A stretch of DNA of 64,000 nt, taken from NCBI GenBank assembly GCA_964016885.1, contig OZ024749.1:11470001-11534000 (forward strand), read 5' to 3'. The notes beneath the pieces were generated by a model. That model did not search any database and had not been told where the DNA came from. It saw only the letters and a program-made list of their open reading frames with translations. The position numbers and the translations under genes were made by a program. Origin of the DNA: Eledone cirrhosa (Eukaryota). This document shows positions 8,489-60,290 of the stretch, piece by piece (the first letter of the stretch is position 1; each line of letters opens with the position of its first letter).

Positions 8489-9025
8489 TAGACAGTGTCT
8501 ATTAGTTTGGTAATGAAAGGGTTAATGACATAGACAGTGTCTTTCATTAGAAATATGGTAATGAAAGGGTTAATGACATAGACAGTGTCTTTCATTAGAA
8601 ATATGGTAATGAAAGGGTTAATGACATAGACAGTGTCTTTCTTTAGAAATATGGTAATGAAAGGGTTAATGACATAGACAGTGTCTTTCATTAGAAATAT
8701 GGTAATGAAAGGGTTAATGACATAGACAGTGTCTTTCATTAGAAATATGGTAATGAAAGGGTTAATGACATAGACAGTGTCTTTCATTAGAAATATGGTA
8801 ATGAAAGGGTTAATGACATAGACAGTGTCTTTCATTAGAAATATGGTAATGGAAGGGTTAATGACATAGACAGTGTCTTTCATTAGAAATACGGTAATGA
8901 AAGGGTTAATGACATAGACAGTGTCTTTCATTAGAAATATGGTAATGAAAGGGTTAATGACATAGACAGTGTCTTTCATTAGAAATATGGTAATGAAAGG
9001 GTTAATGACATAGGCAGTGTCATTC
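8489..9025. repeat. 48-bp tandem array (about 11 copies) of a TTAA-CCCTTT MITE terminus
   Basis: Unit gacagtgtctttcattagaaatatggtaatgaaagggttaatgacata. Confidence 0.95.
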
Positions 9026-9084
9026 ATTAAAACTGCTGATAAACTCACGCGTGCGCACACATACACACACTGTCGTATTACCAC

Positions 9085-10809: not shown

Positions 10810-12908
10810 CCATCACCTTATGGTCATCAGTCCAACACCTTATGGTCATCAGTCCAATACCTTATGGTCATCAGTCCAACACCTTATGGTCATCAGTCCA
10901 CTTTATGGTCATCAGTCCAACACCTTATGGTCATCAGTCCAACACCTTATGGTCATCAGTCCAACACCTTATGGTCATCAGTCCAACACCTTATGGTCAT
11001 CAATCCAACACCTTATGGTCATCAGTCCAACACCTTATGGTCATCAATCCAACACCTTATGGTCATCAGTCCAACACCTTATGGTCATCAGTCCAACACC
11101 TTATGGTCATCAGTCCAACACCTTATGGTCATCAGTCCAACACCTTATGGTCATCAGTCCAACACCTTATGGTCATCAGTCCAACACCTTATGGTCATCA
11201 GTCCAACACCTTATGGTCATCAGTCCATCACCTTATGGTCATCAATCCAACACCTTATGGTCATCAGTCCAACACCTTATGGTCATCAATCCAACACCTT
11301 ATGGTCATCAGTCCAACACCTTATGGTCATCAGTCCAACACCTTATGGTCATCAATCCAACACCTTATGGTCATCAATCCAACACCTTATGGTCATCAGT
11401 CCAACACCTTCTGGTCATCAGTCCAACACCTTATGGTCATCAGTCCAACACCTTATGGTCATCAGTCCAACACCTTATGGTCATCAATCCAACACCTTAT
11501 GGTCATCAGTCTATCACCTTATGGTCATCAGTCCAATACCTTATGGTCATCAGTCCAACACCTTATGGTCATCAATCCAACACCTTATGGTCATCAGTCT
11601 ATCACCTTATGGTCATCAGTCCAACACCTTATGGTCATCAATCCAACACCTTATGGTCATCAGTCTATCACCTTATGGTCATCAGTCCAACACCTTATGG
11701 TCATCAGTCCAATACCTTATGGTCATCAGTCCAACACCTTATGGTCATCAGTCCAACACCTTATGGTCATCAATCCAACACCTTATGGTCATCAGTCCAA
11801 CACCTTATGGTCATCAGTCCAACACCTTATGGTCATCAATCCAACACCTTATGGTCATCAGTCCAACACCTTATGGTCATCAGTCCAACACCTTATGGTC
11901 ATCAGTCCAACACCTTATGGTCATCAGTCCAACATCTTATGGTCATCAGTCCAACACCTTATGGTCATCAGTCCAACACCTTATGGTCATCAGTCCATCA
12001 CCTTATGGTCATCAGTCCAACACCTTATGGTCATCAGTCCAACACCTTATGGTCATCAATCCAACACCTTATGGTCATCAGTCCAACACCTTATGGTCAT
12101 CAGTCCAACACCTTATGGTCATCAGTCCAACACCTTATGGTCATCAGTCCAACACCTTATGGTCATCAGTCCAACACCTTATGGTCATCAGTCCAACACC
12201 TTATGGTCATCAGTCCATCACCTTATGGTCATCAGTCCAACACCTTATGGTCATCAGTCCAACACCTTATGGTCATCAGTCCAACACCTTATGGTCATCA
12301 GTCCAACACCTTATGGTCATCAGTCCAACACCTTATGGTCATCAGTCCAACACCTTATGGTCATCAGTCCAACACCTTATGGTCATCAGTCCAACACCTT
12401 ATGGTCATCAGTCCAACACCTTATGGTCATCAATCCACCTTATGGTCATCAGTCCACCTTATGGTCATCAGTCCACCTTATGGTCATCAGTCCAACACCT
12501 TATGGTCATCAGTCCAACACCTTATGGTCATCAATCCACCTTATGGTCATCAGTCTATCACCTTATGGTCATCAGTCCAACACCTTATGGTCATCAGTCC
12601 AACACCTTATGGTCATCAGTCCACCTTATGGTCATCAGTCTATCACCTTATGGTCATCAGTCCAACACCTTATGGTCATCAGTCCACTTTATGGTCATCA
12701 ATCCAACACCTTATGGTCATCAGTCCACCTTATGGTCATCAGTCCAACACCTTCTGGTCATCAGTCCAACACCTTATGGTCATCAGTCTATCACCTTATG
12801 GTCATCAGTCCAACACCTTCTGGTCATCAGTCCAACACCTTATGGTCATCAGTCTATCACCTTATGGTCATCAGTCCAACACCTCACCTTATGATCATCA
12901 ATCCAACA
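10810..12908. repeat. 22-bp minisatellite (about 95 copies, some 19-bp variants)
   Basis: Unit ccttatggtcatcagtccaaca. Confidence 0.97.
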
Positions 12909-13494: not shown

Positions 13495-13765
13495 ACTGAC
13501 TTTCATTAGAAATATGATAATGAAAGGGTTAATGACAGTGTCTTTCATTAGAAATATTGTAATGAAAGGGTTAATTAAATAGACAATGTCTTTCATTAGA
13601 AATATGGTAATGAAAAGGTTAATGACATAGACAGTGTCTTTCATTAGAAATAGGGTAATGAAAGGGTTAATGACATAGACAGTGTCTTTCATTAGAAATA
13701 TGGCAATGAAAGGGTTAATGACAGGCAGTGTCTTTCATTAGAAATATGGTAATGAAAGGGTTAGT
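13495..13765. repeat. Second short array of the 48-bp MITE-terminus unit
   Basis: Same unit as 8489-9025, about 5-6 copies. Confidence 0.9.
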
Positions 13766-19206: not shown

Positions 19207-21750
19207 TTCAATCTGATGTCTCAACCTGATATATCTCAACCTGATGTCTCAACCTGATATATCTCAACCTGATATATCTCAACCTGATGTGTCTCAACCT
19301 GATATATCTCAATCTGATGTGTCTCAACCTGATGTGTCTCAACCTGATGTGTCTCAACCTGATATATCTCAACCTGATGTGTCTCAACCTGATGTGTCTC
19401 AACCTGATATATCTCAACCTGATATATCTCAACCTGATGTGTCTCAACCTGATGTGTCTCAACCTGATATATCTCAACCTGATATATCTCAACCTGATGT
19501 CTCAACCTGATATATCTCAATCTGATGTCTCAACCTGATGTATCTCAACCTGATGTCTCAACCTGATATATCTCAATCTGATGTCTCAACCTGATGTGTC
19601 TCAACCTGATGTGTCTCAACCTGATATATCTCAACCTGATGTGTCTCAACCTGATAAATCTCAATCTGATGTCTCAACCTGATGTGTCTCAACCTGATGT
19701 GTCTCAACCTGATATATCTCAACCTGATGTCTCAACCTGATATATCTCAACCTGATATATCTCAACCTGATGTGTCTCAACCTGATATATCTCAATCTGA
19801 TGTCTCAACCTGATGTGTCTCAACCTGATGTGTCTCAACCTGATGTGTCTCAACCTGATGTGTCTCAACCTGATGTCTCAACCTGATATATCTCAATCTG
19901 ATGTCTCAACCTGATGTGTCTCAACCTGATGTCTCAACCTGATATATCTCAATCTGATGTCTCAACCTGATGTGTCTCAACCTGATGTGTCTCAACCTGA
20001 TATATCTCAACCTGATATATCTCAATCTGATGTCTCAACCTGACGTGTCTCAACCTGATGTGTCTCAACCTGATGTGTCTCAACCTGATGTGTCTCAACC
20101 TGATGTGTCTCAACCTGATAAATCTCAATCTGATGTGTCTCAACCTGATGTGTCTCAACCTGATGTGTCTCAACCTGATAAATCTCAATCTGATGTGTCT
20201 CAACCTGATGTGTCTCAACCTGATGTGTCTCAACCTGATAAATCTCAATCTGATGTGTCTCAACCTGATATCTCAACCTGATATATCTCAATCTGATGTC
20301 TCAACCTGATGTGTCTCAACCTGATGTCTCAACCTGATATATCTCAATCTGATGTCTCAACCTGATGTGTCTCAACCTGATGTCTCAACCTGATATATCT
20401 CAATCTGATGTCTCAACCTGATGTGTCTCAACCTGATGTCTCAACCTGATGTGTCTCAACCTGATATATCTCAACCTGATGTGTCTCAACCTGATATATC
20501 TCAACCTGATATATCTCAATCTGATGTCTCAACCTGACGTGTCTCAACCTGATGTGTCTCAACCTGATGTGTCTCAACCTGATGTGTCTCAACCTGATGT
20601 GTCTCAACCTGACGTGTCTCAACCTGATAAATCTCAATCTGATGTGTCTCAACCTGATGTGTCTCAACCTGATGTGTCTCAACCTGATATATCTCAATCT
20701 GATGTCTCAACCTGACGTGTCTCAATCTGATAAATCTCAATCTGATGTGTCTCAACCTGATGTGTCTCAACCTGATGTGTCTCAACCTGATAAATCTCAA
20801 TCTGATGTGTCTCAACCTGATGTGTCTCAACCTGATGTGTCTCAACCTGATAAATCTCAATCTGATGTGTCTCAACCTGATGTGTCTCAACCTGATGTGT
20901 CTCAACCTGATATATCTCAACCTGATATATCTCAATCTGATGTCTCAACCTGATGTGTCTCAACCTGATATATCTCAACCTGATGTGTCTCAACCTGATG
21001 TGTCTCAACCTGATATATCTCAACCTGATATATCTCAACCTGATATATCTCAATCTGATGTCTCAACCTGATATATCTCAACCTGACGTGTCTCAACCTG
21101 ATGTGTCTCAACCTGATGTGTCTCAACCTGACGTGTCTCAACCTGATGTGTCTCAACCTGATATATCTCAATCTGATGTCTCAACCTGACGTGTCTCAAC
21201 CTGATATATCTCAACCTGATGTGTCTCAACCTGATGTGTCTCAACCTGATATATCTCAACCTGATATATCTCAACCTGATAAATCTCAATCTGATGTGTC
21301 TCAACCTGATGTGTCTCAACCTGATGTGTCTCAACCTGATATATCTCAACCTGATATATCTCAATCTGATGTCTCAACCTGATATATCTCAACCTGACGT
21401 GTCTCAACCTGATGTGTCTCAACCTGATATATCTCAATCTGATGTCTCAACCTGATGTGTCTCAACCTGATAAATCTCAACCTGATATATCTCAACCTGA
21501 TATATCTCAACCTGACGTGTCTCAACCTGATGTGTCTCAACCTGATATATCTCAACCTGACGTGTCTCAACCTGATATATCTCAACCTGATGTGTCTCAA
21601 CCTGATATATCTCAACCTGATGTGTCTCAACCTGATGTGTCTCAACCTGATGTGTCTCAACCTGATGTGTCTCAACCTGATGTGTCTCAACCTGATGTGT
21701 CTCAACCTGATGTGTCTCAACCTGATATATCTCAATCTGATGTGTCTCAA
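19207..21750. repeat. 15/13-bp minisatellite (about 170 copies)
   Basis: Units tctcaacctgatgtg / tctcaacctgatata / tctcaatctgatg. Confidence 0.97.
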
Positions 21751-21827
21751 CAATGGAAACATTCTTTACTTGCTCTTGTTTCTTCTTTTTTTTTCTTTAG
21801 TAATAATTGTTTTATTCCTTTTTCCAG

Positions 21828-34270: not shown

Positions 34271-34350
34271 TAGTCTTTCTCCTTCCCCCTTATAGCTGGC
34301 CTTCTGCCAATGTTGAAAGTATTGTTGTTATTGTTATCAATGTTTTTCAG

Positions 34351-34508
34351 GTATCTTATGAAACTGACTCCGTCTCAGTCTCTCACTCTACCAATGAGAA
34401 TGCTGGAAGTATTTACTGCTGCGGACACTTATGCTAATTTATCTCTACCATCGGGCAAAATATGGCCACCGGTTGTTCATAATATATTTGAGTTCTTATG
34501 TAATAAAG
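34351..34508 (+). CDS. UBE3C: UBE3C-like exon 6 (YLMKLTPSQSLTLPMRMLEVFT...FLCNK)
   Basis: tttcag| and G|gtttgt, 158 nt, phase 2-1. Contains the conserved LPMRMLEVF motif. Confidence 0.92.
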
Positions 34509-35385
34509 GTTTGTTTTTTGTTTCATTTTAATTTCAACACATTTTGCACAAGTGCAGGCACGTGTCTTCCTGGTTAGGGTGTTGGATTTATGATCATAAT
34601 GTCATAGATTACTCTACTGTAATCATTTCATCATATTTCTAATGAAATACTGAAATACACTAGATTTGAATGAATTAATGAAGAATTTTGAAGGATTTAC
34701 TAAAATAATTCTTCTTTTTCTTTGCCCACTTACTCCTGGGAGGGTCATGGGTGTAGACTCCTCAAGCATGCTTTCCAGCAGGTTCTGTCAGAATCATTCA
34801 TCTGATCCAGCAAGACCGTCCAAGCCCATGGATGTTATCCAACCATCTTCCACGGGGTCTTTCTAACATAGTTAATCAAAAGGTTTTTATATTAAAAATT
34901 TAAATTTAAATAGAAACATTTTAAAATGAATTGTTTCACTTCTGTAGAACCAGAGGCAGTTTTTGGCAGGTTGATATCAAAAGGGTTAAAACACTCAAGA
35001 AACCTCTCATGAGATGCAATATCGTAAGAGGCCAGCTAAACCAGCATAGCCGTATGGTGTAATTTTCATTTCATCATCATCATCTTTTAACATCTATTTT
35101 CTATGCTTGGATGGATTAGATTGGTTGTCATAAGGCTTGACTAGTCAGAGGACCAAACTGTTTGAACCCATGCCTACTTCTATGATATAAAGCTGTTTAT
35201 TTTAAAATGTATTTATCTAAAAACAATCAATCATAATTTTATGTTAAAACCTTTATTAAGTTATGTTCCAAAAACCATAAAGTTTCTTATATTACTGAAC
35301 CACTCCAAAATTTTGATTATTTGAAAACTATAGGCAGAAATATGGTAATGAAAGGGTTAATAATATTTTCCTTTTTCTCCTGTAG

Positions 35386-35539
35386 GGTATTTTAAAAGCC
35401 TGCGTGTTTTGCTGAATCTTAAAGTACCGTCCTCTATAGAAAGGTGTCACTCTGCACGTATACCTATTGCTGAATCTATATTTGATCTCATCATGAAACC
35501 TGTGAATATTGCTGTAGCATCTGGAGACAAAGCTTTCTG
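35386..35539 (+). CDS. UBE3C: UBE3C-like exon 7 (GYFKSLRVLLNLKVPSSIERCHSARIPIAESIFDLIMKPV...)
   Basis: ctcctgtag| and TG|gtatgt, 154 nt, phase 1-2. Matches UBE3C 'GYYRSLYLLINSKLPSSIE...RVPIA'. Confidence 0.9.
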
Positions 35540-35665
35540 GTATGTTATTTCATCATCTCTTTTGTTGTCTTAAAGTCCTCTACCACACAAAATCACGTTA
35601 GAAAAGAGATTTACGAAAAATCAATAACACCTCTATGACTACATCATACTGAAAATTAAAGTGGT

Positions 35666-37633
35666 TGTGATCATGTCTCTGTTCTCCCACTACAGCACTG
35701 GTATATTGTCTGATGTGATCATGTCTCTTTTCTCCCACTACAGCACTGGTATATTGTCTGATGTGATCATGTCTCTGTTCTCCCACTACAGCACTGGTAT
35801 ATTGTCTGATGTGATCATGTCTCTTTTCTCCCACTACATCACTGGTATATTGTCTGATGTGATCATGTCTCTTTTCTCCCACTACAGCACTGGTGTATTG
35901 TCTGATGTGATCATGTCTCTTTTCTACCACTACAGCACTGGTATATTGTCTGATGTGATCATGTCTCTTTTCTCCCACTACAGCACTGGTATATTGTCTG
36001 ATGTGATCATGTCTCTTTTCTCCCACTACAGCACTGGTGTATTGTCTGATGTGATCATGTCTCTTTTCTCCCACAACAGCACTGGTATATTGTCTGATGT
36101 GATCATGTCTCTTTTCTCCCACTACAGCACTGGTATATTGTCTGATGTGATCATGTCTCTTTTCTCCCTCTACAGTACTGGTATATTGTCTGATGTGATC
36201 ATGTCTCTTTTCTCCCACTACAGCACTGGTATATTGTCTGATGTGATCATGTCTCTTTTCTCTCACTACAGCACTGGTATATTGTCTGATGTGATCATGT
36301 CTCTTTTCTCCCACTACAGTACTGGTATATTGTCTGATGTGATCATGTCTCTTTTCCCCCTCTACAGCACTGGTGTATTGTCTGATGTGATCATGTCTCT
36401 TTTCTCCCTCTACAGCACTGGTATATTGTCTGATGTGATCATGTCTCTTTTCTCCCACTACAGCACTGGTGTATTGTCTGATGTGATCATGTCTCTTTTC
36501 TCCCACTACAGCACTGGTGTATTGTCTGATGTGATCATGTCTCTTTTCTCCCTCTACAGCACTGGTGTATTGTCTGATGTGATCATGTCTCTTTTCTCCC
36601 ACTACAGCACTGGTGTATTGTCTGATGTGATCATGTCTCTTTTCTCCCACTACAGCACTGGATTATTGTCTGATGTGATCATGTCTCTTTTCTCCCACTA
36701 CAGTACTGGTGTATTGTCTGATGTGATCATGTCTCTTTTCTCCCACTACAGCACTGGTGTATTGTCTGATGTGATCATGTCTCTTTTCTCCCACTACAGC
36801 ACTGGTGTATTGTCTGATGTGATCATGTCTCTTTTATCCCACTACAGTACTGGTATATTGTCTGATGTGATCATGTCTCTTTTCTCCCACTACAGCACTG
36901 GTGTATTGTCTGATGTGATCATTTCTCTTTTCTCCCACTACAGTACTGGTATATTGTCTGATGTGATCATGTCTCTTTTCTTCCACTACAGCACTGGTAT
37001 ATTGTCTGATGTGATCATGTCTCTTTTCTCCCACTACAGCACTGGTATATTGTCTGATGTGATCATGTCTCTTTTCTCCCACTACAGCACTGGTATATTG
37101 TCTGATGTGATCATGTCTCTTTTCTCCCACTACAGCACTGGTATATTGTCTGATGTGATCATGTCTCTTTTCTCCCACTACAGCACTGGTATATTGTCTG
37201 ATGTGATCATGTCTCTTTTATCCCACTACAGTACTGGTATATTGTCTGATGTGATCATGTCTCTTTTCTCCCACTACAGCACTGGTATATTGTCTGATGT
37301 GATCATGTCTCTTTTATCCCACTACAGTACTGGTATATTGTCTGATGTGATCATGTCTCTTTTCTCCCACTACAGCACTGGTGTATTGTCTGATGTGATC
37401 ATGTCTCTTTTCTCCCACTACAGTACTGGTATATTGTCTGATGTGATCATGTCTCTTTTCTTCCACTACAGCACTGGTATATTGTCTGATGTGATCATGT
37501 CTCTTTTCTCCCACTACAGCACTGGTGTATTGTCTGATGTGATCATGTCTCTTTTCTCCCACTACAGCACTGGTATATTGTCTGATGTGATCATGTCTCT
37601 TTTCTCCCACTACAGCACTGGTGTATTGTCTGA
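35666..37633 (+). repeat. 48-bp tandem array (41 units) spanning the intron 7 / exon 8 splice acceptor
   Basis: Unit tgtgatcatgtctcttttctcccactacag|cactggtatattgtctga. First AG ends at 35695 and last at 37615, exactly 40 x 48 bp apart. Confidence 0.97.
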
Positions 37634-37884
37634 AGTGTGTCGTGAACTGTTCTGCCCTCCACATTCTCAGCAAGTGGAATTGTTTCTGTTGCCTGCCATG
37701 GCATATGGTAAATATCCATTTCCATTTGTGGAACTGATACAAGCTCTGATTAATAAGATTGCTGATCAAAATGACAACCAGTTATTTTCCAGTAAGAGTG
37801 AAAAAGAAGCCAGTTCCAACCAATTCTCCAGTGTTAATCATTGGTTATTGTACTCTGTGTTGGTTCTGGGAGAAAAGTATGTCG
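37616..37884 (+). CDS. UBE3C: UBE3C-like exon 8, annotated with the most downstream of 41 tandem acceptor positions (TGVLSEVCRELFCPPHSQQVELFLLPAMA...WLLYSVLVLGEKYV)
   Basis: Donor G|gtaagt at 37885, phase 2-1. Similar to UBE3C 'PWLFYFVLTVGENYL'. The true 5' boundary is uncertain: it could be any in-frame acceptor from 35696 onward. Confidence 0.8.
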
Positions 37885-37945
37885 GTAAGTACAGCTTTTA
37901 GTTATTTATTTATTTTATATTCAATTTAAAATAGCTCTTTTGATC

Positions 37946-40900
37946 GGTCACTGGTTTGAATGTTGATCTCTCAATTGAATGGTCAGTGGTTTGAATGTTA
38001 GTCTCACAATTGTATGGTCAGTGGTTTGAATGTTGGTCTCACAATTGTATGGTCAGTGGTTTGAATGTTGGTCTCACAATTGTATGGTCAGTGGTTTGAA
38101 TGTTGGTCTCACAATTGTATGGTCAGTGGTTTGAATGTTGGTCTCACAATTGTATGGTCAGTGGTTTGAATGTTGGTCTCACAATTGTATGGTCAGTGGT
38201 TTGAATGTTGGTCTCACAATTGTATGGTCAGTGGTTTGAATGTTGGTCTCTCAATTGTATGGTCAGTGGTTTGAATGTTGGTCTCACAATTGTATGGTCA
38301 GTGGTTTGAATGTTGGTCTCTCAATTGTATGGTCAGTGGTTTGAATGTTGGTCTCACAATTGTATGGTCAGTGGTTTGAATGTTGGTCTCACAATTGTAT
38401 GGTCAGTGGTTTGAATGTTGGTCTCACAATTGTATGGTCAGTGGTTTGAATGTTGGTCTCACAATTGTATGGTCAGTGGTTTGAATGTTGGTCTCACAAT
38501 TGTATGGTCAGTGGTTTGAATGTTGATCTCACAATTGTATGGTCAGTGGTTTGAATGTTGATCTCTCAATTGTATGGTCAGTAGTTTGAATGTTGGTCTC
38601 ACAATTGTATGGTCAGTGGTTTGAATGTTGGTCTCTCAATTGTATGGTCAGTGGTTTGAATGTTGGTCTCACAATTGTATGGTCAGTGGTTTGAATGTTG
38701 GTCTCTCAATTGTATGGTCAGTGGTTTGAATGTTGGTCTCACAATTGTATGGTCAGTGGTTTGAATGTTGGTCTCTCAATTGTATGGTCAGTGGTTTGAA
38801 TGTTGGTCTCACAATTGTATGGTCAGTGGTTTGAATGTTGGTCTCACAATTGTATGGTCAGTGGTTTGAATGTTGGTCTCACAATTGTATGGTCAGTGGT
38901 TTGAATGTTGGTCACTCAATTGTATGGTCAGTGGTTTGAATGTTGGTCTCACAATTGTATGGTCAGTGGTTTGAATGTTGGTCTCACAATTGTATGGTCA
39001 GTGGTTTGAATGTTGGTCTCACAATTATATGGTCAGTGGTTTGAATGTTGATCTCACAATTGTATGGTCAGTGGTTTGAATGTTGGTCTCTCAATTGAAT
39101 GGTCAGTGGTTTGAATGTTGGTCTCTCAATTGAATGGTCAGTGGTTTGAATGTTGGTCTCTCAATTGAATGGTCAGTGGTTTGAATGTTGGTCTCTCAAT
39201 TGAATGGTCAGTGGTTTGAATGTTGGTCTCACAATTGTATGGTCAGTGGTTTGAATGTTGGTCTCACAATTGTATGGTCAGTGGTTTGAATGTTGATCTC
39301 TCAATTGAATGGTCAGTGGTTTGAATGTTGGTCTCAATTGTATGGTCAGTGGTTTGAATGTTGGTCTCTCAATTGTATGGTCAGTGGTTTGAATGTTGGT
39401 CTCTCAATTGTATGGTCAGTGGTTTGAATGTTGGTCTCTCAATTGTATGGTCAGTGGTTTGAATGTTGGTCTCTCAATTGTATGGTCAGTGGTTTGAATG
39501 TTGGTCTCTCAATTGTATGGTCAGTGGTTTGAATGTTGATCTCACAATTGAATGGTCAGTGGTTTGAATGTTGGTCTCTCAATTGTATGGTCAGTGGTTT
39601 GAATGTTGGTCTCTCAATTGTATGGTCAGTGGTTTGAATGTTGGTCTCTCAATTGTATGGTCAGTGGTTTGAATGTTGATCTCACAATTGTATGGTCAGT
39701 GGTTTGAATGTTGGTCTCTCAATTGTATGGTCAGTGGTTTGAATGTTGGTCTCACAATTGAATGGTCAGTGGTTTGAATGTTGGTCTCTCAATTGTATGG
39801 TAAGCAATTTGAATGATCTCACAATTGAATGGTCAGCGATTTGAATGTTGGTCTCACAATTGTATGGTCAGTGGTTTGAATGTTGGTCTCACAATTGTAT
39901 GGTCAGTGGTTTGAATGTTGGTCTCTCAATTGTATGGTCAGTGGTTTGAATGTTGGTCTCTCAATTGTATGGTCAGTGGTTTGAATGTTGGTCTCTCAAT
40001 TGTATGGTCAGTGGTTTGAATGTTGGTCTCTCAATTGTATGGTCAGTGGTTTGAATGTTGGTCTCACAATTGAATGGTCAGTGGTTTGAATGTTGGTCTC
40101 TCAATTATATGGTCAGCGATTTGAATGTTGGTCTCTCAATTGTATGGTCAGTGGTTTGAATGTTGATCTCACAATTGAATGGTCAGTGGTTTGAATGTTG
40201 GTCTCTCAATTGTATGGTCAGTGGTTTGAATGTTGGTCTCTCAATTGTATGGTCAGTGGTTTGAATGTTGGTCTCTCAATTGTATGGTAAGTGGTTTGAA
40301 TGTTGGTCTCACAATTGAATGGTCAGCGATTTGAATGTTGGTCTCTCAATTGTATGGTAAGCAATCTGAATGTTGGTCTCTCAATTGTATGGTCAGTGGT
40401 TTGAATGTTGGTCTCTCAATTGTATGGTCAGTGGTTTGAATGTTGGTCTCTCAATTGTATGGTCAGTGGTTTGAATGTTGGTCTCAATTGTATGGTCAGT
40501 GGTTTGAATGTTGGTCTCACAATTGAATGGTCAGTGGTTTGAATGTTGGTCTCTCAATTATATGGTCAGCGATTTGAATGTTGGTCTCTCAATTGTATGG
40601 TCAGTGGTTTGAATGTTGATCTCACAATTGAATGGTCAGTGGTTTGAATGTTGGTCTCTCAATTGTATGGTCAGTGGTTTAAATGTTGGTCTCTCAATTG
40701 TATGGGCAGTGGTTTGAATGTTGGTCTCTCAATTGTATGGTCAGTGGTTTGAATGTTGGTCTCTCAATTGTATGGGCAGTGGTTTGAATGTTGGTCTCTC
40801 AATTGTATGATCAGTGGTTTGAATGTTGTTCTCTCAATTGTATGGTCAGTGGTTTGAATGTTGGTCTCACAATTGTATGGTCAGTGGTTTGAATGTTGGT

Positions 40901-43900
40901 CTCTCAATTGTATGATCAGTGGTTTGAATGTTGTTCTCTCAATTGAATGGTCAGTGGTTTGAATGTTGGTCTCTCAATTATATGGTCAGCGATTTGAATG
41001 TTGGTCTCAATTGTATGGTAAGCAATTTGAATGTTGATCTCACAATTGAATGGTCAGCGATTTGAATGTTGGTCTCAAAATTGTATGGTCAGTGGTTTGA
41101 ATGTTGGTTTCACAATTGAATGGTCAGTGGTTGTTGGTCTCACAATTGAATGGTCAGTGGCTGTTGGTCTCACAATTGAATGGTCAGTGGCTGTTGGTCT
41201 CACAATTGTGTGGTCAGTGGTTGTTGGTCTCACAATTGAATGGTCAGTCGCTGTTGGTCTCACAATTGAATGGTCAGTGGTTGTTGGTCTCACAATTGAA
41301 TGGTCAGTGGTTGTGGGTCTCACAATTGTGTGGTCAGTGGTTGTTTGTTCTCACAATTGAATGGTCAGTGGCTGTTTGTCTCACAATTGAATGGTCAGTG
41401 GCTGTTGGTCTCACAATTGTGTGGTCAGTGGTTGTTGGTCTCAATTGAATGGTCAGCGATTTGAATGTTGGTCTCTCAATTGTATGGTCAGTGGTTTGAA
41501 TGTTGGTCTCTCAATTGTATGGTCAGTGGTTTGAATGTTGGTCTCACAATTGAATGGTCAGTGGTTGTTGGTCTCACAATTGTGTGGTCAGTGGCTGTTG
41601 GTCTCACAATTGTATGGTCAGTGGTTGTTGGTCTCAATTGAATGGTCAGTGGTTGTTGGTCTCACAATTGAATGGTCAGTGGTTGTTGGTCTCACAATTG
41701 AATGGTCTGGTTGTTGGTCTCACAATTGAATGGTCAGCGATTTGAATGTTGGTCTCACAATTGTATGGTCAGTGGCTTGAATGTTGGTTTCACAATTGAA
41801 TGGTCAGTGGTTGTTGGTCTCACAATTGTGTGGTCAGTGGTTTGAATGTTGGTCTCACAATTGAATGGTCAGTGGTTGTTGGTCTCACAATTGTGTGGTC
41901 AGTGGCTGTTGGTCTCACAATTGTATGGTCAGTGGTTGTTGGTCTCAATTGAATGGTCAGTGGTTGTTGGTCTCACAATTGAATGGTCAGTGGTTGTTGG
42001 TCTCACAATTGAATGGTCTGGTTGTTGGTCTCACAATTGAATGGTCAGTGGTTGTTGGTCTCACAATTAAATGGTCAGTGGTTGTTGGTCTCACAATTGT
42101 GTGGTCAGTGGCTGTTGGTCTCACAATTGTATGGTCAGTGGTTGTTGGTCTCAATTGAATGGTCAGTGGTTGTTGGTCTCACAATTGAATGGTCTGGTTG
42201 TTGGTCTCACAATTGAATGGTCAGTGGTTGTTGGTCTCACAATTGAATGGTCAGTGGTTGTTGGTCTCACAATTGAATGGTCAGTGGTTGTTGGTCTCAC
42301 AATTGAATGGTCAGTGGCTGTTGGTCTCACAATTGAATGGTCAGTGGCTGTTGGTCTCACAATTGTGTGGTCAGTGGTTGTTGGTCTCAATTGAATGGTC
42401 AGTGGTTGTTGGTCTCACAATTGTGTGGTCAGTGGCTGTTGGTCTCACAATTGTGTGGTCAGTGGTTGTTGGTCTCACAATTGAATGGTCAGTGGCTGTT
42501 GGTCTCACAATTGAATGGTCAGTGGTTGTTGGTCTCACAATTGAATGGTCAGTGGTTGTGGGTCTCACAATTGTGTGGTCAGTGGTTGTTTGTTCTCACA
42601 ATTGAATGGTCAGTGGCTGTTTGTCTCACAATTGAATGGTCAGTGGCTGTTGGTCTCACAATTGTGTGGTCAGTGGTTGTTGGTCTCACAATTGAATGGT
42701 CAGTGGCTGTTGGTTTTAATTGAATGGTCAGTGGTTGTTGGTCTCACAATTGAATGGTCAGTGGTTGTTGGTCTCACAATTGTGTGGTCAGTGGCTGTTT
42801 GTCTCAATTGAATGGTCAGTGGTTGTTGGTCTCATAATTGAATGGTCAGTGGTTGTTTGTCTCACAATTGAATGGTCAGTGGTTGTTGGTCTCACAATTG
42901 AATGGTCAGTGGTTGTTGGTCTCACAATTGAATGGTCAGTGGTTGTTGGTCTCACAATTGAATGGTCAGTGGCTGTTGGTCTCACAATTGTGTGGTCAGT
43001 GGCTGTTTTTCTCACAATTGAATGGTCAGTGGTTGTTGGTCTCACAATTGAATGGTCAGTGGTTGTTGGTCTCACAATTATGTGGTCAGTGGCTGTTGGT
43101 CTCACAATTGAATGGTCAGTGGCGGTTGCTCTCAATTGAATGGTCAGTGGTTGTTGGTCTCAATTGAATGGTCAGTGGTTGTTGGTCTCACAATTGTGTG
43201 GTCAGTGGTTGTTGGTCTCACAATTGAATGGTCAATGGTTGTTGGTCTCACAATTGAATGGTGAGTGGTTGTTGGTCTCACAATTGAATGGTCAGTGGTT
43301 GTTGGTCTCACAATTGTGTGGTCAGTGGTTGTTGGTCTCACAATTGAATGGTCAGTGGTTGTTGGTCTCACAATTGTGTGGTCAGTGGCTGTTGGTCTCA
43401 CAATTGTGTGGTCAGTGGCTGTTGGTCTCACAATTGTGTGGTCAGTGGCTGTTGGTCTCACAATTGTGTGGTCAGTGGTTGTTGGTCTCACAATTGAATA
43501 GTCAGTGGTTGTTGGTCTCAATTGAATGGTCAGTGGTTGTTGGTCTCACAATTGTGTGGTCAGTGGTTGTTGGTCTCAATTGTGTGGTCAGTGGCTGTTG
43601 GTCTCACAATTGTGTGGTCAGTGGTTGTTGGTCTCACAATTGAATGGTCAGTGGTTGTTGGTCTCAATTGAATGGTCAGTGGTTGTTGGTCTCACAATTG
43701 TGTGGTCAGTGGTTGTTGGTCTCACAATTGTGTGATCAGTGGTTGTTGGTCTCAATTGAATGGTCAGTGGTTGTTGGTCTCACAATTGAATGGTCAGTGG
43801 TTGTTGGTCTCAATTGAATGGTCAGTGGTTGTTGGTCTCACAATTGAATGGTCAGTGGCTGTTGGTCTCACAATTGTGTGGTCTGGTTGCTGGTCTCACA

Positions 43901-46900
43901 ATTGAATGGTCAGTGGCTGTTGGTCTCACAATTGTGTGGTCAGTGGTTGTTGGTCTCACAATTGAATGGTCAGTGGTTGTTGGTCTCAATTGAATGGTCA
44001 GTGGTTGTTGGTCTCACAATTGAATGGTCAGTGGTTGTTGGTCTCAATTGAATGGTCAGTGGTTGTTGGTCTCACAATTGAATGGTCAGTGGTTGTTGGT
44101 CTCAATTGAATGGTCAGAGGTTGTTGGTCTCACAATTGAATGGTCAGTGGCTGTTGGTCTCACAATTGTGTGGTCATTGGTTGTTGTTCTCACAATTGAA
44201 TGGTCAGTGGATGTTGGTCTCACAATTGTGTGGTCAGTGGTTGTTGGTCTCACAATTGAATGGTCAGTGGTTGTTGGTCTCTCAATTGTATGGTCAGTGG
44301 TTTGAATGTTGGTCTCACAATTGAATGGTCAGTGGTTTGAATGTTGGTCTCTCAATTATATGGTCAGCGATTTGAATGTTGGTCTCTCAATTGTATGGTC
44401 AGTGGTTTGAATGTTGATCTCACAATTGAATGGTCAGTGGTTTGAATGTTGGTCTCTCAATTGTATGGTCAGGGGTTTGAATGTTGGTCTCTCAATTGTA
44501 TGGGCAGTGGTTTGAATGTTGGTCTCTCAATTGTATGGTCAGTGGTTTGAATGTTGGTCTCTCAATTGTATGGGCAGTGGTTTGAATGTTGGTCTCTCAA
44601 TTGTATGGTCAGTGGTTTGAATGTTGGTCTCTCAATTGTATGGTCAGTGGTTTGAATGTTGGTCTCACAATTGAATGGTCAGTGGTTTTAATGTTGGTCT
44701 CTCAATTATATGGTCAGCGATTTGAATGTTGGTCTCTCAATTGTATGGTAAGCAATTTGAATGTTGATCTCACAATTGAATGGTCAGCGATTTGAATGTT
44801 GGTCTCACAATTGTATGGTCAGTGGTTTGAATGTTGGTTTCACAATTGAATGGTCAGTGGTTGTTGGTCTCACAATTGAATGGTCAGTGGCTGTTGGTCT
44901 CACAATTGAATGGTCAGTGGCTGTTGGTCTCACAATTGTGTGGTCAGTGGTTGTTGGTCTCACAATTGAATGGTCAGTCGCTGTTGGTCTCACAATTGAA
45001 TGGTCAGTGGTTGTTGGTCTCACAATTGAATGGTCAGTGGTTGTGGGTCTCACAATTGTGTGGTCAGTGGTTGTTTGTTCTCACAATTGAATGGTCAGTG
45101 GCTGTTTGTCTCACAATTGAATGGTCAGTGGCTGTTGGTCTCACAATTGTGTGGTCAGTGGTTGTTGGTCTCACAATTGAATGGTCAGCGATTTGAATGT
45201 TGGTCTCTCAATTGTATGGTCAGTGGTTTGAATGTTGGTCTCAATTGTATGGTCAGTGGTTTGAATGTTGGTCTCTCAATTGAATGGTCAGCGATTTGAA
45301 TGTTGGTCTCACAATTGTATGGTCAGTGGTTTGAATGTTGGTTTCACAATTGAATGGTCAGTGGTTGTTGGTCTCACAATTGTGTGGTCAGTGGCTGTTG
45401 GTCTCACAATTGTATGGTCAGTGGTTGTTGGTCTCAATTGAATGGTCAGTGGTTGTTGGTCTCACAATTGAATGGTCAGCGGTTGTTGGTCTCACAATTG
45501 AATGGTCAGTGGTTGTTGGTCTCAATTGAATGGTCAGTGGTTGTTGGTCTCACAATTGTGTGGTCAGTGGCTGTTGGTCTCACAATTGAATGGTCAGTGG
45601 TTGTTGGTCTCACAATTGAATGGTCAGTGGCTGTTGGTCTCACAATTGAATGGTCAGTGGCTGTTGGTCTCACAATTGTGTGGTCAGTGGTTATTGGTCT
45701 CACAATTGAATGGTCTGGTTGTTGGTCTCACAATTGAATGATCAGTGGTTGTTGGTCTCACAATCGAATGGTCAGTGGTTGTTGGTCTCACAATTGAATG
45801 GTCAGTGGTTGTTGGTCTCACAATTGAATGGTCAGTGGTTGTTGGTCTTAATTGAATGGTCAGTGGCTGTTGGTCTCACAATTGAATGGTCAGTGGTTGT
45901 TGGTCTCACAATTGAATGGTCAGTGGTTGTTGGTCTCAATTGAATGGTCAGTGGTTGTTGGTCTCACAATTGTGTGGTCAGTGGCTGTTGGTCTCACAAT
46001 TGTGTGGTCAGTGGTTGTTGGTCTCACAATTGAATGGTCAGTGGCTGTTGGTCTCACAATTGAATGGTCAGTGGTTGTTGGTCTCACAATTGAATGGTCA
46101 GTGGTTGTGGGTCTCACAATTGTGTGGTCAGTGGTTGTTTGTTCTCACAATTGAATGGTCAGTGGCTGTTTGTCTCACAATTGTGTGGTCAGTGGTTGTT
46201 GGTCTCACAATTGAATGGTCAGTGGTTGTTGGTCTTAATTGAATGGTCAGTGGCTGTTGGTCTCACAATTGAATGGTCAGTGGTTGTTGGTCTCACAATT
46301 GAATGGTCAGTGGTTGTTGGTCTCAATTGAATGGTCAGTGGTTGTTGGTCTCAATTGAATGGTCAGTGGTTGTTGGTCTCACAATTGTGTGGTCAGTGGC
46401 TGTTTGTCTCAATTGAATGGTCAGTGGTTGTTGGTCTCACAATTGAATGGTCAGTGGTTGTTGGTCTCACAATTGTGTGGTCAGTGGTTGTTGGTCTCAC
46501 AATTGAATGGTCAGTGGTTGTTGGTCTCAATTGAATGGTCAGTGGTTGTTGGTCTCAATTGAATGGTCAGTGGTTGTTGGTCTCACAATTGTGTGGTCAG
46601 TGGTTGTTGGTCTCACAATTGTGTGGTCAGTGTTTGTTGGTCTCACAATTGAATGTTCAGTGGTTGTTGGTCTCACAATTGTGTGGTCAGTGGTTGTTGG
46701 TCTCACAATTGTGTGGTCAGTGGTTGTTGGTCTCACAATTGTGTGGTCAGTGGTTGTTGGTCTCACAATTGTGTGGTCAGTGGTTGTTGGTCTCACAATT
46801 ATGTGGTCAGTGGCTGTTGGTCTCACAATTGAATGGTCAGTGGCTGTTGGTCTCAATTGAATGGTCAGTGGTTGTTGGTCTCAATTGAATGGTCAGTGCT

Positions 46901-49900
46901 TGTTGGTCTCACAATTGAATGGTCAGTGGTTGTTGGTCTCACAATTGAATGGTCAGTGGTTGTTGGTCTCAATTGTGTGGTCAGTGGTTGTTGGTCTCAC
47001 AATTGAATGGTCAGTGGTTGTTGGTCTCAATTGAATGGTCAGTGGTTGTTGGTCTCACAATTGTGTGGTCAGTGGTTGTTGGTCTCACAATTGAATGGTC
47101 AGTGGTTGTTGGTCTCACAATTGAATGGTCAGTGGTTGTTGGTCTCACAATTGAATGGTCAGTGGTTGTTGGTCTCACAATTGTGTGGTCAGTGGTTGGT
47201 CTCACAATTGAATGGTCAGTGGTTGTTGGTCTCACAATTGAATGGTCAGTGGCTGTTGGTCTCACAATTGTGTGGTCAGTGGCTGTTGGTCTCACAATTG
47301 TGTGGTCAGTGGCTGTTGGTCTCACAATTGTGTGGTCAGTGGTTGTTGGTCTCACAATTGAATAGTCAGTGGTTGTTGGTCTCAATTGAATGGTCAGTGG
47401 TTGTTGGTCTCACAATTGTGTGGTCAGTGGTTGTTGGTCTCAATTGTCTGGTCAGTGGCTGTTGGTCTCACAATTGTGTGGTCAGTGGTTGTTGGTCTCA
47501 CAATTGAATGGTCAGTGGTTGTTGGTCTCAATTGAATGGTCAGTGGTTGTTGGTCTCACAATTGTGTGGTCAGTGGTTGTTGGTCTCACAATTGTGTGGT
47601 CAGTGGTTGTTGGTCTTACAATTGTGTGGTCAGTGGTTGTTGGTCTCACAATTGTGTGGTCAGTGGCTGTTGGTCTCACAATTGTGTGGTCAGTGGTTGT
47701 TGGTCTCACAATTGAATGGTCAGTGGCTGTTGGTCTCACAATTGAATGGTCAGTGGTTGTTGGTCTCAATTGAATGGTCAGTGGTTGTTGGTCTCACAAT
47801 TGAATAGTCAGTGGTTGTTGGTCTCAATTGAATGGTCAGTGGTTGTTGGTCTCACAATTGAATGGTCAGTGGTTGTTGGTCTCAATTGAATGGTCAGTGG
47901 TTGTTGGTCTCAATTGAATGGTCAGTGGTTGTTGGTCTCACAATTGAATGGTCAGTGGCTGTTGGTCTCACAATTGTGTGGTCAGTGTTTGTTGGTCTCA
48001 CAATTGAATGGTCAGTGGTTGTTGGTCTCACAATTGTGTGGTCAGTGGTTGTTGGTCTCACAATTGTGTGGTCAGTGGCTGTTGGTCTCACAATTGTGTG
48101 GTCAGTGGTTGTTGGTCTCACAATTGAATGGTCAGTGGCTGTTGGTCTCACAATTGAATGGTCAGTGGTTGTTGGTCTCACAATTGTGTGGTCAGTGGCT
48201 GTTGGTCTCACAATTGTGTGGTCAGTGGTTGTTGGTCTCAATTGAATGGTCAGTGGTTGTTGGTCTTGCAATTGAATGGTCAGTGGTTGTTGGTCTCAAT
48301 TGAATGGTCAGTGGTTGTTGGTCTCACAATTGAATGGTCAGTGGCTGTTGGTCTCACAATTGTGTGGTCAGTGGTTGTTGTTCTCACAATTGAATGGTCA
48401 GTGGCTGTTGGTCTCACAATTGTGTGGTCAGTGGTTGTTGGTCTCACAATTGAATGGTCAGTGGTTGTTGGTCTCAATTGAATGGTCAGTGGTTGTTGGT
48501 CTCACAATTGTGTGGTCAGTGGTTGTTGGTCTCACAATTGAATGGTCAGTGGTTGTTGGTCTCACAATTGTGTGGTCAGTGGTTGTTGGTCTCACAATTG
48601 TGGTCAGTGGCTGTTGGTCTCACAATTGTGTGGTCAGTGGTTGTTGGTCTCACAATTGAATGGTCAGTGGCTGTTGGTCTCACAATTGAATGGTCAGTGG
48701 TTGTTGGTCTCACAATTGTGTGGTCAGTGGCTGTTGGTCTCACAATTGTGTGGTCAGTGGTCGTTGGTCTCAATTGAATGGTCAGTGGTTGTTGGTCTCA
48801 ATTGAATGGTCAGTGGTTGTTGGTCTCAATTGAATGGTCAGTGGTTGTTGGTCTCACAATTGAATGGTCAGTGGCTGTTGGTCTCACAATTGTGTGGTCA
48901 GTGGTTGTTGGTCTCACAATTGAATGGTCAGTGGCTGTTGGTCTCACAATTATGTGGTCAGTGGTTGTTGGTCTCACAATTGAATGGTCAGTGGTTGTTG
49001 GTCTCAATTAAATGGTCAGTGGTTGTTGGTCTCACAATTGTGTGGTCAGTGGTTGTTGGTCTCACAATTGTGTGGTCAGTGGCTGTTGGTCTCACAATTT
49101 TGTGGTCAGTGGTTGTTGGTCTCACAATTGAATGGTCAGTGGTTGTTGGTCTCAATTAAATGGTCAGTGGTTGTTGGTCTCACAATTGTGTGGTCAGTGG
49201 TTGTTTGTCTCACAATTGTGTGGTCAGTGGTTGTTGGTCTCACAATTGAATGGTCAGTGGCTGTTGGTCTCACAATTGTGTGGTCAGTGGTTGTTGGTCT
49301 CACAATTGAATGGTCAGTGGTTGTTGGTCTCAATTGAATGGTCAGTGGTTGTTGGTCTCACAATTGTGTGGTCAGTGGCTGTTGGTCTCACAATTGTGTG
49401 GTCAGTGGTTGTTGGTCTCACAATTGAATGGTCAGTGGCTGTTGGTCTCACAATTGAATGGTCAGTGGTTGTTGGTCTCAATTGAATGGTCAGTGGTTGT
49501 TGGTCTCACAATTGTGTGGTCAGTGGCTGTTGGTCTCACAATTGTGTGGTCAGTGGTTGTTGGTCTCACAATTGAATGGTCAGTGGTTGTTGGTCTCAAT
49601 TGAATGGTCAGTGGTTGTTGGTCTCACAATTGTGTGGTCAGTGGTTGTTGGTCTCACAATTGAATTGTCAGTGGTTGTTGGTCTCACAATTGAATGGTCA
49701 GTGGTTGTTGGTCTGACAATTGTGTGGTCAGTGGTTGTTGGTCTCACAATTGAATGGTCAGTGGTTGTTGGTTTCACAATTGTGTGGTCAGTGGTTGTTG
49801 GTCTCACAATTGAATGGTCAGTGGTTGTTGGTCTCAATTGAATGGTCAGTGGTTGTTGGTCTCAATTGAATGGTCAGTGGTTGTTGGTCTCACAATTGTG

Positions 49901-50330
49901 TGGTCAGTGGTTGTTGGTCTCACAATTGAATGGTCAGTGGTTGTTGGTCTCAATTGAATGGTCAGTGGTTGTTGGTCTCAATTGAATGGTCAGTGGTTGT
50001 TGGTCTCACAATTGTGTGGTCAGTGGTTGTTGGTCTCACAATTGTGTGGTCAGTGTTTGTTGGTCTCACAATTGAATGTTCAGTGGTTGTTGGTCTCACA
50101 ATTGTGTGGTCAGTGGTTGTTGGTCTCACAATTGTGTGGTCAGTGGTTGTTGGTCTCACAATTGTGTGGTCAGTGGTTGTTCGTCTCACAATTGTGTGGT
50201 CAGTGGTTGTTGGTCTCACAATTGTGTGGTCAGTGGTTGTTGGTCTCACAATTGAATGGTCAGTGGTTGTTGGTCTCACAATTGTGTGGTCAGTGGTTTG
50301 ATTGGTCCTATAATTGTGTGGTCAGTGAAT
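37946..50330. repeat. 12.4-kb compound satellite of 35-bp and 30/28-bp units
   Basis: Units ggtcagtggtttgaatgttggtctcacaattgtat and ggtcagtggttgttggtctcacaattgaat. Confidence 0.98.
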
Positions 50331-59094: not shown

Positions 59095-60050
59095 CATTGC
59101 TGGTGTCATGATAAAAACACCCTGTATACCCTGTAAGGTTATAGTGCTGGTGTCATGATAAAAGTACCCAGTCCACCTTGTAAATTGGTAATGCTGGTGT
59201 CATGCTAAAAATACCCAGTCCACCCTGTAAAGTGGTAGTGCTGGTGTCATGGTAAAAATACCCAGTCCACCCTGTAAAGTGGTAGTGCTGGTGTCATGGT
59301 AAAAATATCCAGTCCACCCTGTAAAGTGGTAGTGCTGGTGTCATGGTAAAAATACCCAGTCCACCCTGTAAAGTGGTAGTGCTGGTGTCATGGTAAAAAT
59401 ACCCAGTCCACCCTGTAAAGTGGTAGTGCTGGTGTCATGGTAAAAATACCCAGTCCACCCTGTAAAGTGGTAGTGCTGGTGTCATGGTAAAAATACCCAG
59501 TCCACCCTGTAAAGTGGTAGTGCTGGTGTCATGGTAAAAATACCCAGCCCACCTTGCAAAGTGGTAGTGCTGGTGTCATGATAAAAATACCCAGCCCACC
59601 CTGTAAAGTGGTAGTGCTGGTGTCATGATCAAAATACCCAGTCCACCTTGTAAAGTGGGAGTGCCGGTGTCATGATAAAAATACCCAGTCCACCCTGTAA
59701 AGTGGGAGTGCCGGTGTCATGATAAAAATACCCAGCCCACCCTGTAAAGTGGTAGTGCTGGTGTCATGATCAAAATACCCAGTCCACCCTGTAAAGTGGG
59801 AGTGCCGGTGTCATGATAAAAGTACCCAGTCCACCCTGTAAAGTGGCAGTGCTGGTGTCATGATCAAAATACCCAGTCCACCCTGTAAAGTGGTAGTGCT
59901 GGTGCCATGATAAAAGTACCCAGTCCACCCTGTAAAGTGGCAGTGCTGGTGCCATGATAAAAGCACCCAGTCGACCCTGTAAAGTGGCAGTGCTGGTGCC
60001 ATGATAAAAGTACCCAGTCCACCCTACAAGATGGTAGTCCTGGTGTCACA
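59095..60050. repeat. 47-bp minisatellite (about 20 copies) derived from the RTE/SINE 3'UTR
   Basis: Unit gtgctggtgtcatggtaaaaatacccagtccaccctgtaaagtggta. Confidence 0.95.
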
Positions 60051-60104: not shown

Positions 60105-60290
60105 GTGATGATAACTAATACATGGTAAACAGTGATGGTAATGACTTATAGATGGTAAATAGTGATGATGTTGATGACTAATACATGGTAAATAGTGATG
60201 ATGGTGATGACTAATACATGGTAAATAGTGATGATGTTGATGACTAATACATGGTAAATAGTGATGATGGTGATGATAATGACTAATAAA
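60105..60290. repeat. About 33-bp tandem repeat
   Basis: gatgactaatacatggtaaatagtgatgatg, about 5 copies. Confidence 0.85.

Follow-up and report, generated by a model that had tools for sequence, protein, structure and literature searches.

Which of 41 phased acceptor positions does a cell use when all of them lie in tandem in front of a single exon? The question is raised by the ubiquitin ligase gene UBE3C of the cephalopod Eledone cirrhosa, located in a window (the whole stretch of DNA that was analysed) of 64,000 nucleotides. An initial annotation, made from the letters of the window, had recognised the acceptor of UBE3C exon 8 in 41 copies and had derived from them a possible ladder of isoforms. 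While the copies were recovered in our analysis, we arrive at a different expectation for their use. We regard the array as a mirage minisatellite, made of 41 in-register copies of an intron-exon junction, that is probably spliced out as intron, since we expect the choice to fall on the last acceptor.

UBE3C and its exon 8 junction array

Our UBE3C model comprises 24 coding exons, all of them GT-AG, and was placed with the help of 200 kb of downstream DNA. Coding exon 7 covers positions 35386–35539 of the plus strand according to the junction model (86 % to cephalopod UBE3C in tblastn), has its donor after 35539 in phase 2 and is followed on the same strand by the unique 5' part of intron 7 (35540–35665), upstream of the array. 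Coding exon 8 lies at 37616–37884, likewise on the plus strand, and precedes an intron of 19.8 kb. With 269 nt it is the longest of the 22 internal exons, the next one having 245 nt, and it is 79 % identical to UBE3C of Octopus bimaculoides, 69 % to that of Argonauta hians and 62 % to that of a cuttlefish. We infer an ancestral intron 7 of 156 nt, the shortest in UBE3C, where the other introns measure at least 520 nt. The exon number, the donor position, the exon end and the 156 nt to the first AG had all been given by the initial annotation and agree with this model. About 69 kb past the gene end, a minus-strand match of 85 % to UBE3C residues 886–911 is present at G000:C9:11646036-11646113, possibly a duplicated UBE3C exon fragment.

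The 48-bp array was delimited by Tandem Repeats Finder to positions 35666–37637 of the plus strand (period 48, 41.1 copies, 96 % matches, 0 % indels); phased on their AG dinucleotides, its 41 whole units occupy 35666–37633. Its unit joins the last 30 nt of intron 7, including the CAG, to the first 18 nt of exon 8, as had been read from the letters before, and the 41 acceptor positions follow one another in phase from 35695 to 37615, a total spacing of 40×48=1920 bp that likewise stands as first described. CAG is present at 40 of the 41 positions; the sole dead acceptor is the fourth (35838–35839, plus strand), where CAG has become CAT, matching the unit without AG that had been noticed near 35840. 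The first AG (35694–35695, plus strand) keeps the native upstream intron, and the last one (37614–37615, plus strand), which alone continues into the full exon 8, is the predicted site of use. At the unit junctions the branch-like word CTGAT is made, as claimed earlier, about 30 nt upstream of acceptors 2–41, with none at acceptor 1, so that the whole array holds exactly 40 AG and 40 CTGAT words. Every unit also contains, 5 nt in, a donor-like word CTG/GTATAT (35698–35706 on the plus strand for the first), which scores 5.0 bits, compared with 5.6–11.4 bits for the 23 real UBE3C donors when these are scored in-sample. The structural features that define mirages are present: the unit reaches across an exon-intron boundary of its host gene, and the units are of high identity (96 %), with many but not all keeping the AG or GT of the splice signal (here an AG in 40/41).

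By eye, variant blocks recur within the array (units 32–33 equal units 34–35), and one unit variant is found in 13 of 40 units, another in eight. The array was probably born by one 48-bp tandem duplication, through slippage or unequal exchange, and then probably grew by ordinary repeat expansion, while the shared variant blocks suggest spread by unequal crossover or conversion. It occupies a single place in the 3.0 Gb genome, as all 39 matches of a DNA search, which skips very common words, fell into the array or exon 8.

Reading frame and repeat neighbourhood

The array is open in the UBE3C frame and reads into the conserved exon, as the initial annotation had stated: a stop-to-stop frame of the plus strand at 35628–37901 encodes 757 aa and spans the array and exon 8, and the remaining two plus-strand frames meet a stop in every unit of the array. 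The repeat part of the open frame amounts to 640 residues with a GRAVY of +0.88. From the frame, the missing stops and the missing indels a special status of the array and, further, the isoform ladder had been derived; for this step the sequence gives no support. A unit would be both in frame and free of stops with a chance of about 0.20 (1/3×0.59), given that 59 % of in-frame unit designs of 24–72 bp are stop-free, and 13 of the 23 real UBE3C acceptors would also give rise to a stop-free 30+18 unit. Stops are made by 3 of the 144 possible single changes in the unit, and the probability of finding none among 14 variants is 0.74. Synonymous changes make up four of these 14 distinct unit substitutions versus 3.1 expected, a comparison of low power, and the other ten change a residue. 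The 14 substitutions look neutral.

The array shares with coding VNTRs a unit that is a multiple of three and an open frame, features covered by the same chance of about 0.20, and it fails as a conserved coding repeat, as 15 of 15 orthologous proteins contain no insertion at the junction. The repeat peptide found no similar protein among 7998 scored candidates of a collection that does not hold this species' own UBE3C. We consider the open frame as likely accidental and without meaning; it may ease tolerance of the array, because occasional slips would cause no frameshift. Long open reading frames arise in arrays by chance, since an intronic 22-bp array at 10810–12884 of the window alone has three of more than 700 aa, two on the plus and one on the minus strand.

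Perfect register was rejected as a sign of coding as well, because it is common in nearby arrays. Frequent length variants had been ascribed to the other large arrays, and the four longest in the window do show them, with 8/94, 4/71, 27/143 and 158/353 anchor gaps off register. The contrast was nevertheless overstated: a 47-bp array of 20 copies has 0/16 gaps off register. Among 24 arrays of 15 or more copies, six are in perfect register, as are half of ten comparable other arrays (5/10; period of at least 39, 15–45 copies, within 264 kb).

Minisatellites, defined by a period of at least 12, at least three copies and at least 85 % matches, are abundant around the junction array. UBE3C contains 22 of them, which take up 32 % of its 107 kb, and 23 others account for 27 % of the 157 kb that follow, compared with about 6 % at kinase loci elsewhere. 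Within the 264 kb, three further arrays span a splice site, four in total, and two of the three further ones have a unit that is not divisible by three. At G000:C9:11544942-11545327 (L021:1613-1998), downstream of the window, the UBE3C exon 14 donor is present eight times at exact spacing in a 54-bp array, in frame and stop-free, with about 5 nt of exon per unit. A 65-bp array at G000:C9:11567893-11568198 (L020:1623-1928) consists of five copies of the UBE3C exon 19 donor with about 30 nt of exon; these are out of frame with a stop directly after the donor, and they must be ignored or their products destroyed if UBE3C is to work. The third, a 67–69-bp array with three donor copies at G000:C9:11717594-11717803 (L163:3594-3803), belongs to a neighbouring gene for an uncharacterised protein (PF17825), the exon being conserved in Argonauta and Octopus.

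In-frame and stop-free units are found in two of the four spanning arrays, which is no excess (P=0.18). If seed units were placed at random, 0.52 spanning arrays would be expected in UBE3C versus three observed (P=0.016), an excess that, with ascertainment ignored, speaks against our reading of the array; for the two beyond the ascertained one, P is 0.085. At Pkinase matches, no splice-site-spanning array was detected in 126 examined of 138 (12 long matches were left out), where 0.9–1.2 would be expected. Two arrays within 40 bp and one at 106 bp of such matches proved on inspection not to reach across a splice site, while for other arrays up to 150 bp away the listed entries were relied on, match edges giving only approximate exon ends. 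These counts do not amount to a genome-wide excess; in the simplest reading, spanning arrays are a by-product of the local repeat birth rate.

Units of 47–48 bp are common in arrays of the window (8508–9029, 13500–13763, 59098–60048) and of L145–L164, and they fall into few motif families, some of which recur at several places in the 264 kb. The 48-bp period is thus locally common regardless of coding frame, and our guess is that these families stem from interspersed repeats. Several long arrays end 5–110 bp from an exon with the splice site untouched (19217–21751, 37961–50327 and 60109–60280 of the window; L086, L104), as if only the minimal signal were spared. The one at 37961–50327 is a separate 30/35-bp minisatellite that starts 77 bp after the exon 8 donor and spans no splice site. 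A perfect 37-bp array of five copies at G000:C9:11588195-11588378 (L150:4195-4378) resembles an intron end, CAG and 15 nt; it could not be assigned to any exon, and none of six peptides (0/6) gave a Pfam hit. Furthermore, a 33-bp repeat of six copies at G000:C9:11618195-11618401 lies within a Ser/Lys/Arg-rich frame of 282 aa (L153:4053-4898) that gave no Pfam hit and is possibly a true coding repeat.

Relatives of the array in other genomes

Mirages are a described yet little-studied class, and two papers on amphioxus name them in BflGb6, BflGb9, Adh3, TnC and PGBD5 (PMC3087553, PMC3902484). BflGb6 is described there to carry tandem duplications of the intron 3' end plus exon start in 6 and 3 units, BflGb9 has donor-type copies, and Adh3 has units of 10–72 bp (PMC3087553). 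According to the same papers, splicing appears regular in BflGb6 and Adh3 (PMC3087553) as well as in Adh and TnC (PMC3902484). The UBE3C array resembles BflGb6 in its tandem copies of intron 3' end and exon start, most of which keep the splice signal, and it resembles the amphioxus mirages in general in that both acceptor and donor types are present and a single gene or region can have several, with 48 bp falling into the 10–72 bp range of Adh3. It differs in its mollusc host, in having 41 copies versus 3–6 in BflGb6, and in a unit that is in frame, stop-free and creates its own branch-like word; the splicing outcome is predicted here. No mollusc mirage was found in the literature searched, whose coverage is thin for subscription journals, and as far as our searches reach, mirages are hereby extended to a cephalopod. 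The array is an unusually large member of the class and most likely neutral.

Two human VNTRs are instructive as well. In IVS7 of F7, a 37-bp VNTR, only the exon-adjacent donor is used (PMC1557585). As in UBE3C, one end unit of the repeat forms the true exon boundary and identical pseudo-sites lie next to it, but F7 is affected on the donor side with 5–9 sites, and scanning and exon adjacency agree there on the first site. In UBE3C the two point to opposite ends, scanning to the first AG and exon definition to the last, which makes this array more discriminating than F7. In addition, because the frame is open, nonsense-mediated decay would not conceal wrong acceptor choices. With its unit variants serving as barcodes, the UBE3C array represents a natural experiment on raw acceptor choice among 40 near-identical sites. 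The VNTR in intron 18 of ABCA7 likewise combines a unit that carries a splice signal with a large copy number, and a repeat donor next to the real one sees some use, with inclusion of one unit observed (PMC5954066). ABCA7 differs in lying on the donor side and in its 25-bp unit, which contains almost no exon and, when included, shifts the frame, and its effect was measured whereas that in UBE3C is predicted.

The array also recalls the Rogers model, as outlined in PMC3087553, since an intragenic duplication covers a splice signal and every unit has a donor-like word; unlike in that model, it implies no new intron but a lengthening of the existing intron 7. A Rogers-type intron gain was rejected, as splicing from an internal donor would not restore the original mRNA exactly, the best such donor lying at +5 and giving 48k+5 nt.

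Choice of the acceptor

The question of decoys posed by the initial annotation is real. In our preferred reading the choice would be made by exon definition, which is expected where a 19.8-kb intron follows the exon, and would fall on the last AG. Only the last copy would be placed at a normal exon distance, 269 nt, from the exon 8 donor, with each step upstream adding 48 nt up to an exon of 2189 nt. Based on matrices built on just 22–23 sites, the exon 8 donor is strong (10.1 bits), whereas its acceptor ranks below all others of the 23 in UBE3C with 1.3 bits versus 4.7–16.6 bits (leave-one-out). This acceptor therefore probably relies on the full exon and on the strong downstream donor. The first copy scores −5.0 bits versus −0.6 bits for the consensus unit, which is lowest but one of the 41, tied with copy 3 and with only the dead copy below. 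Both this score and the lacking CTGAT argue for the last AG.

The last AG is furthermore predicted because it alone gives an intact, conserved protein, with 1086 residues, no internal stop and 87 % identity to O. bimaculoides. Lineage-specific changes in this model number 63 versus 36 in O. bimaculoides (p=0.009), which counts against our reading, and 60 versus 50 in Argonauta (p=0.39). Since they are not in excess over Argonauta, UBE3C is not decaying, while a slightly faster change would still be compatible with these counts. All 15 of 15 orthologs are gap-free at the exon 7/8 junction, which lies within a predicted helix at residues 250–265 of the ortholog (AlphaFold, block pLDDT 83–85); as the model is poor overall with a mean pLDDT of 58, only blocks with pLDDT >80 were used. 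A PDB sequence search returned UBE3C structures for the HECT region only.

Some points speak against the last AG. The first AG closes a short intron of 156 nt, which favours pairing across the intron, and leakage is real in such arrays, as seen from the neighbouring repeat donor of ABCA7 (PMC5954066). Moreover, 3' scanning is widely accepted, and in duplication experiments on gamma-globin the proximal copy was used, although another group found the opposite (PMC1557585).

The strongest competitor, which we nevertheless consider unlikely, is the isoform ladder, in which more than 10 % of the transcripts would be spliced to upstream copies, chiefly those few that lie closest to exon 8, thereby adding 16n hydrophobic residues, with the copy number tuning the normal UBE3C dose. 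Copies 2–41 indeed hardly differ from the last copy in branch-like word, pyrimidine tract and CAG, the penultimate one would give an exon of 317 nt that is just 48 nt longer, the frame is open, and the use of an adjacent repeat donor in ABCA7 offers a precedent (PMC5954066). Ladder transcripts would escape nonsense-mediated decay, because 16n residues are added without a frameshift. Set against this are the absence of a coding selection signal on the units and the helix, gap-free in 15/15 orthologs, that the insert would break. The amphioxus mirages and F7 are reported without ladders (PMC3087553, PMC3902484, PMC1557585), and the unmatched repeat peptide adds a weak argument, as the own UBE3C is absent from the 7998 candidates. 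If the ladder were true, 40 live acceptors would compete and give a 48-nt ladder of mRNAs whose products are longer by 16n residues in the helical region near the N-terminus. In that case, ubiquitin-ligase dose would be set by a heritable dial, the length of the array, and splice-site amplification would provide a route from minisatellite to protein repeat.

Use of the first AG through intron definition and scanning appears improbable to us. The array would become exonic, giving an exon 8 of 2189 nt and a hydrophobic insert of 640 residues, with either a novel long protein as the outcome or, as seems more likely, a protein that is degraded. The ancestral intron 7 being the shortest in the gene, the frame being open from end to end and scanning models (PMC1557585) would all be in favour of this outcome. 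However, this is the copy that scores lowest but one and has no CTGAT, ten of the 14 unit variants alter a residue at a neutral rate, a stretch with a GRAVY of +0.88 would be inserted over 640 residues into a helix, and the remainder of UBE3C is intact and conserved.

Decoys might also impair the recognition of exon 8, with skipping (269 nt, a frameshift) or retention of intron 7 as the main effect, and lower the UBE3C output depending on copy number, as for exon 19 of ABCA7. The weak exon 8 acceptor would fit, as would the link between ABCA7 VNTR length and skipping of the flanking exon (PMC5954066) and the skipping of the F7 exon when the usable site shifts away (PMC1557585). We judge this very improbable, given that UBE3C is intact and that amphioxus mirages are reported to splice normally (PMC3087553).

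Further mechanisms were tried and rejected. Units can pair with one another through a self-complementary core of 14 nt, but RNA structure hiding the decoys was discarded: three windows of 121 nt fold no better than shuffles (z of +0.75, +0.74 and +2.05), folding was matched by arrays built from shuffled units in 89/150 cases, and local accessibility does not mark the last acceptor. Recursive splicing requires an AG directly before a GT and is ruled out, as the units have AG/CA or AG/TA. An in-frame micro-exon made with an internal donor fails too, since the donor-like word 5 nt past the AG gives 48k+5 nt, which is out of frame; the in-frame GTs of the unit score poorly with −1.0 and 0.4 bits.

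Finally, it would be most surprising if the array, or most of its length, were an assembly artefact absent from the animal's DNA, as contig depth rises from about 12 to 398–557 on the array bins, a perfect contig enters the first unit, 14 distinct variants are arranged in non-random blocks and many comparable arrays lie close by, even though the flank is covered by the contigs of one sample, maybe the assembly's own source. These short-read contigs of run X1, which is possibly the same sample as the assembly, were compared over 34300–35760, that is, the upstream flank and two units. Of three further runs compared there, X4 may be RNA, as its word share of 0.34 equals the exon-only share (363 of 1062 distinct 31-mers); it had no depth on exons 6 and 7 or on the array start, a gap without weight because a filter can drop records. 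The RAD runs X5 and X6 do not cover the site. The depth in X1 is 10.5–14.5 in the single-copy bins on or beside exons 6 and 7, whereas the two array bins reach 398 and 557, contig depth not being equal to copy number. Many array copies are thus backed by short-read contigs and an artefact is unlikely; one contig of 373 nt matches 35339–35711 with zero differences, running from the unique flank into the first unit.
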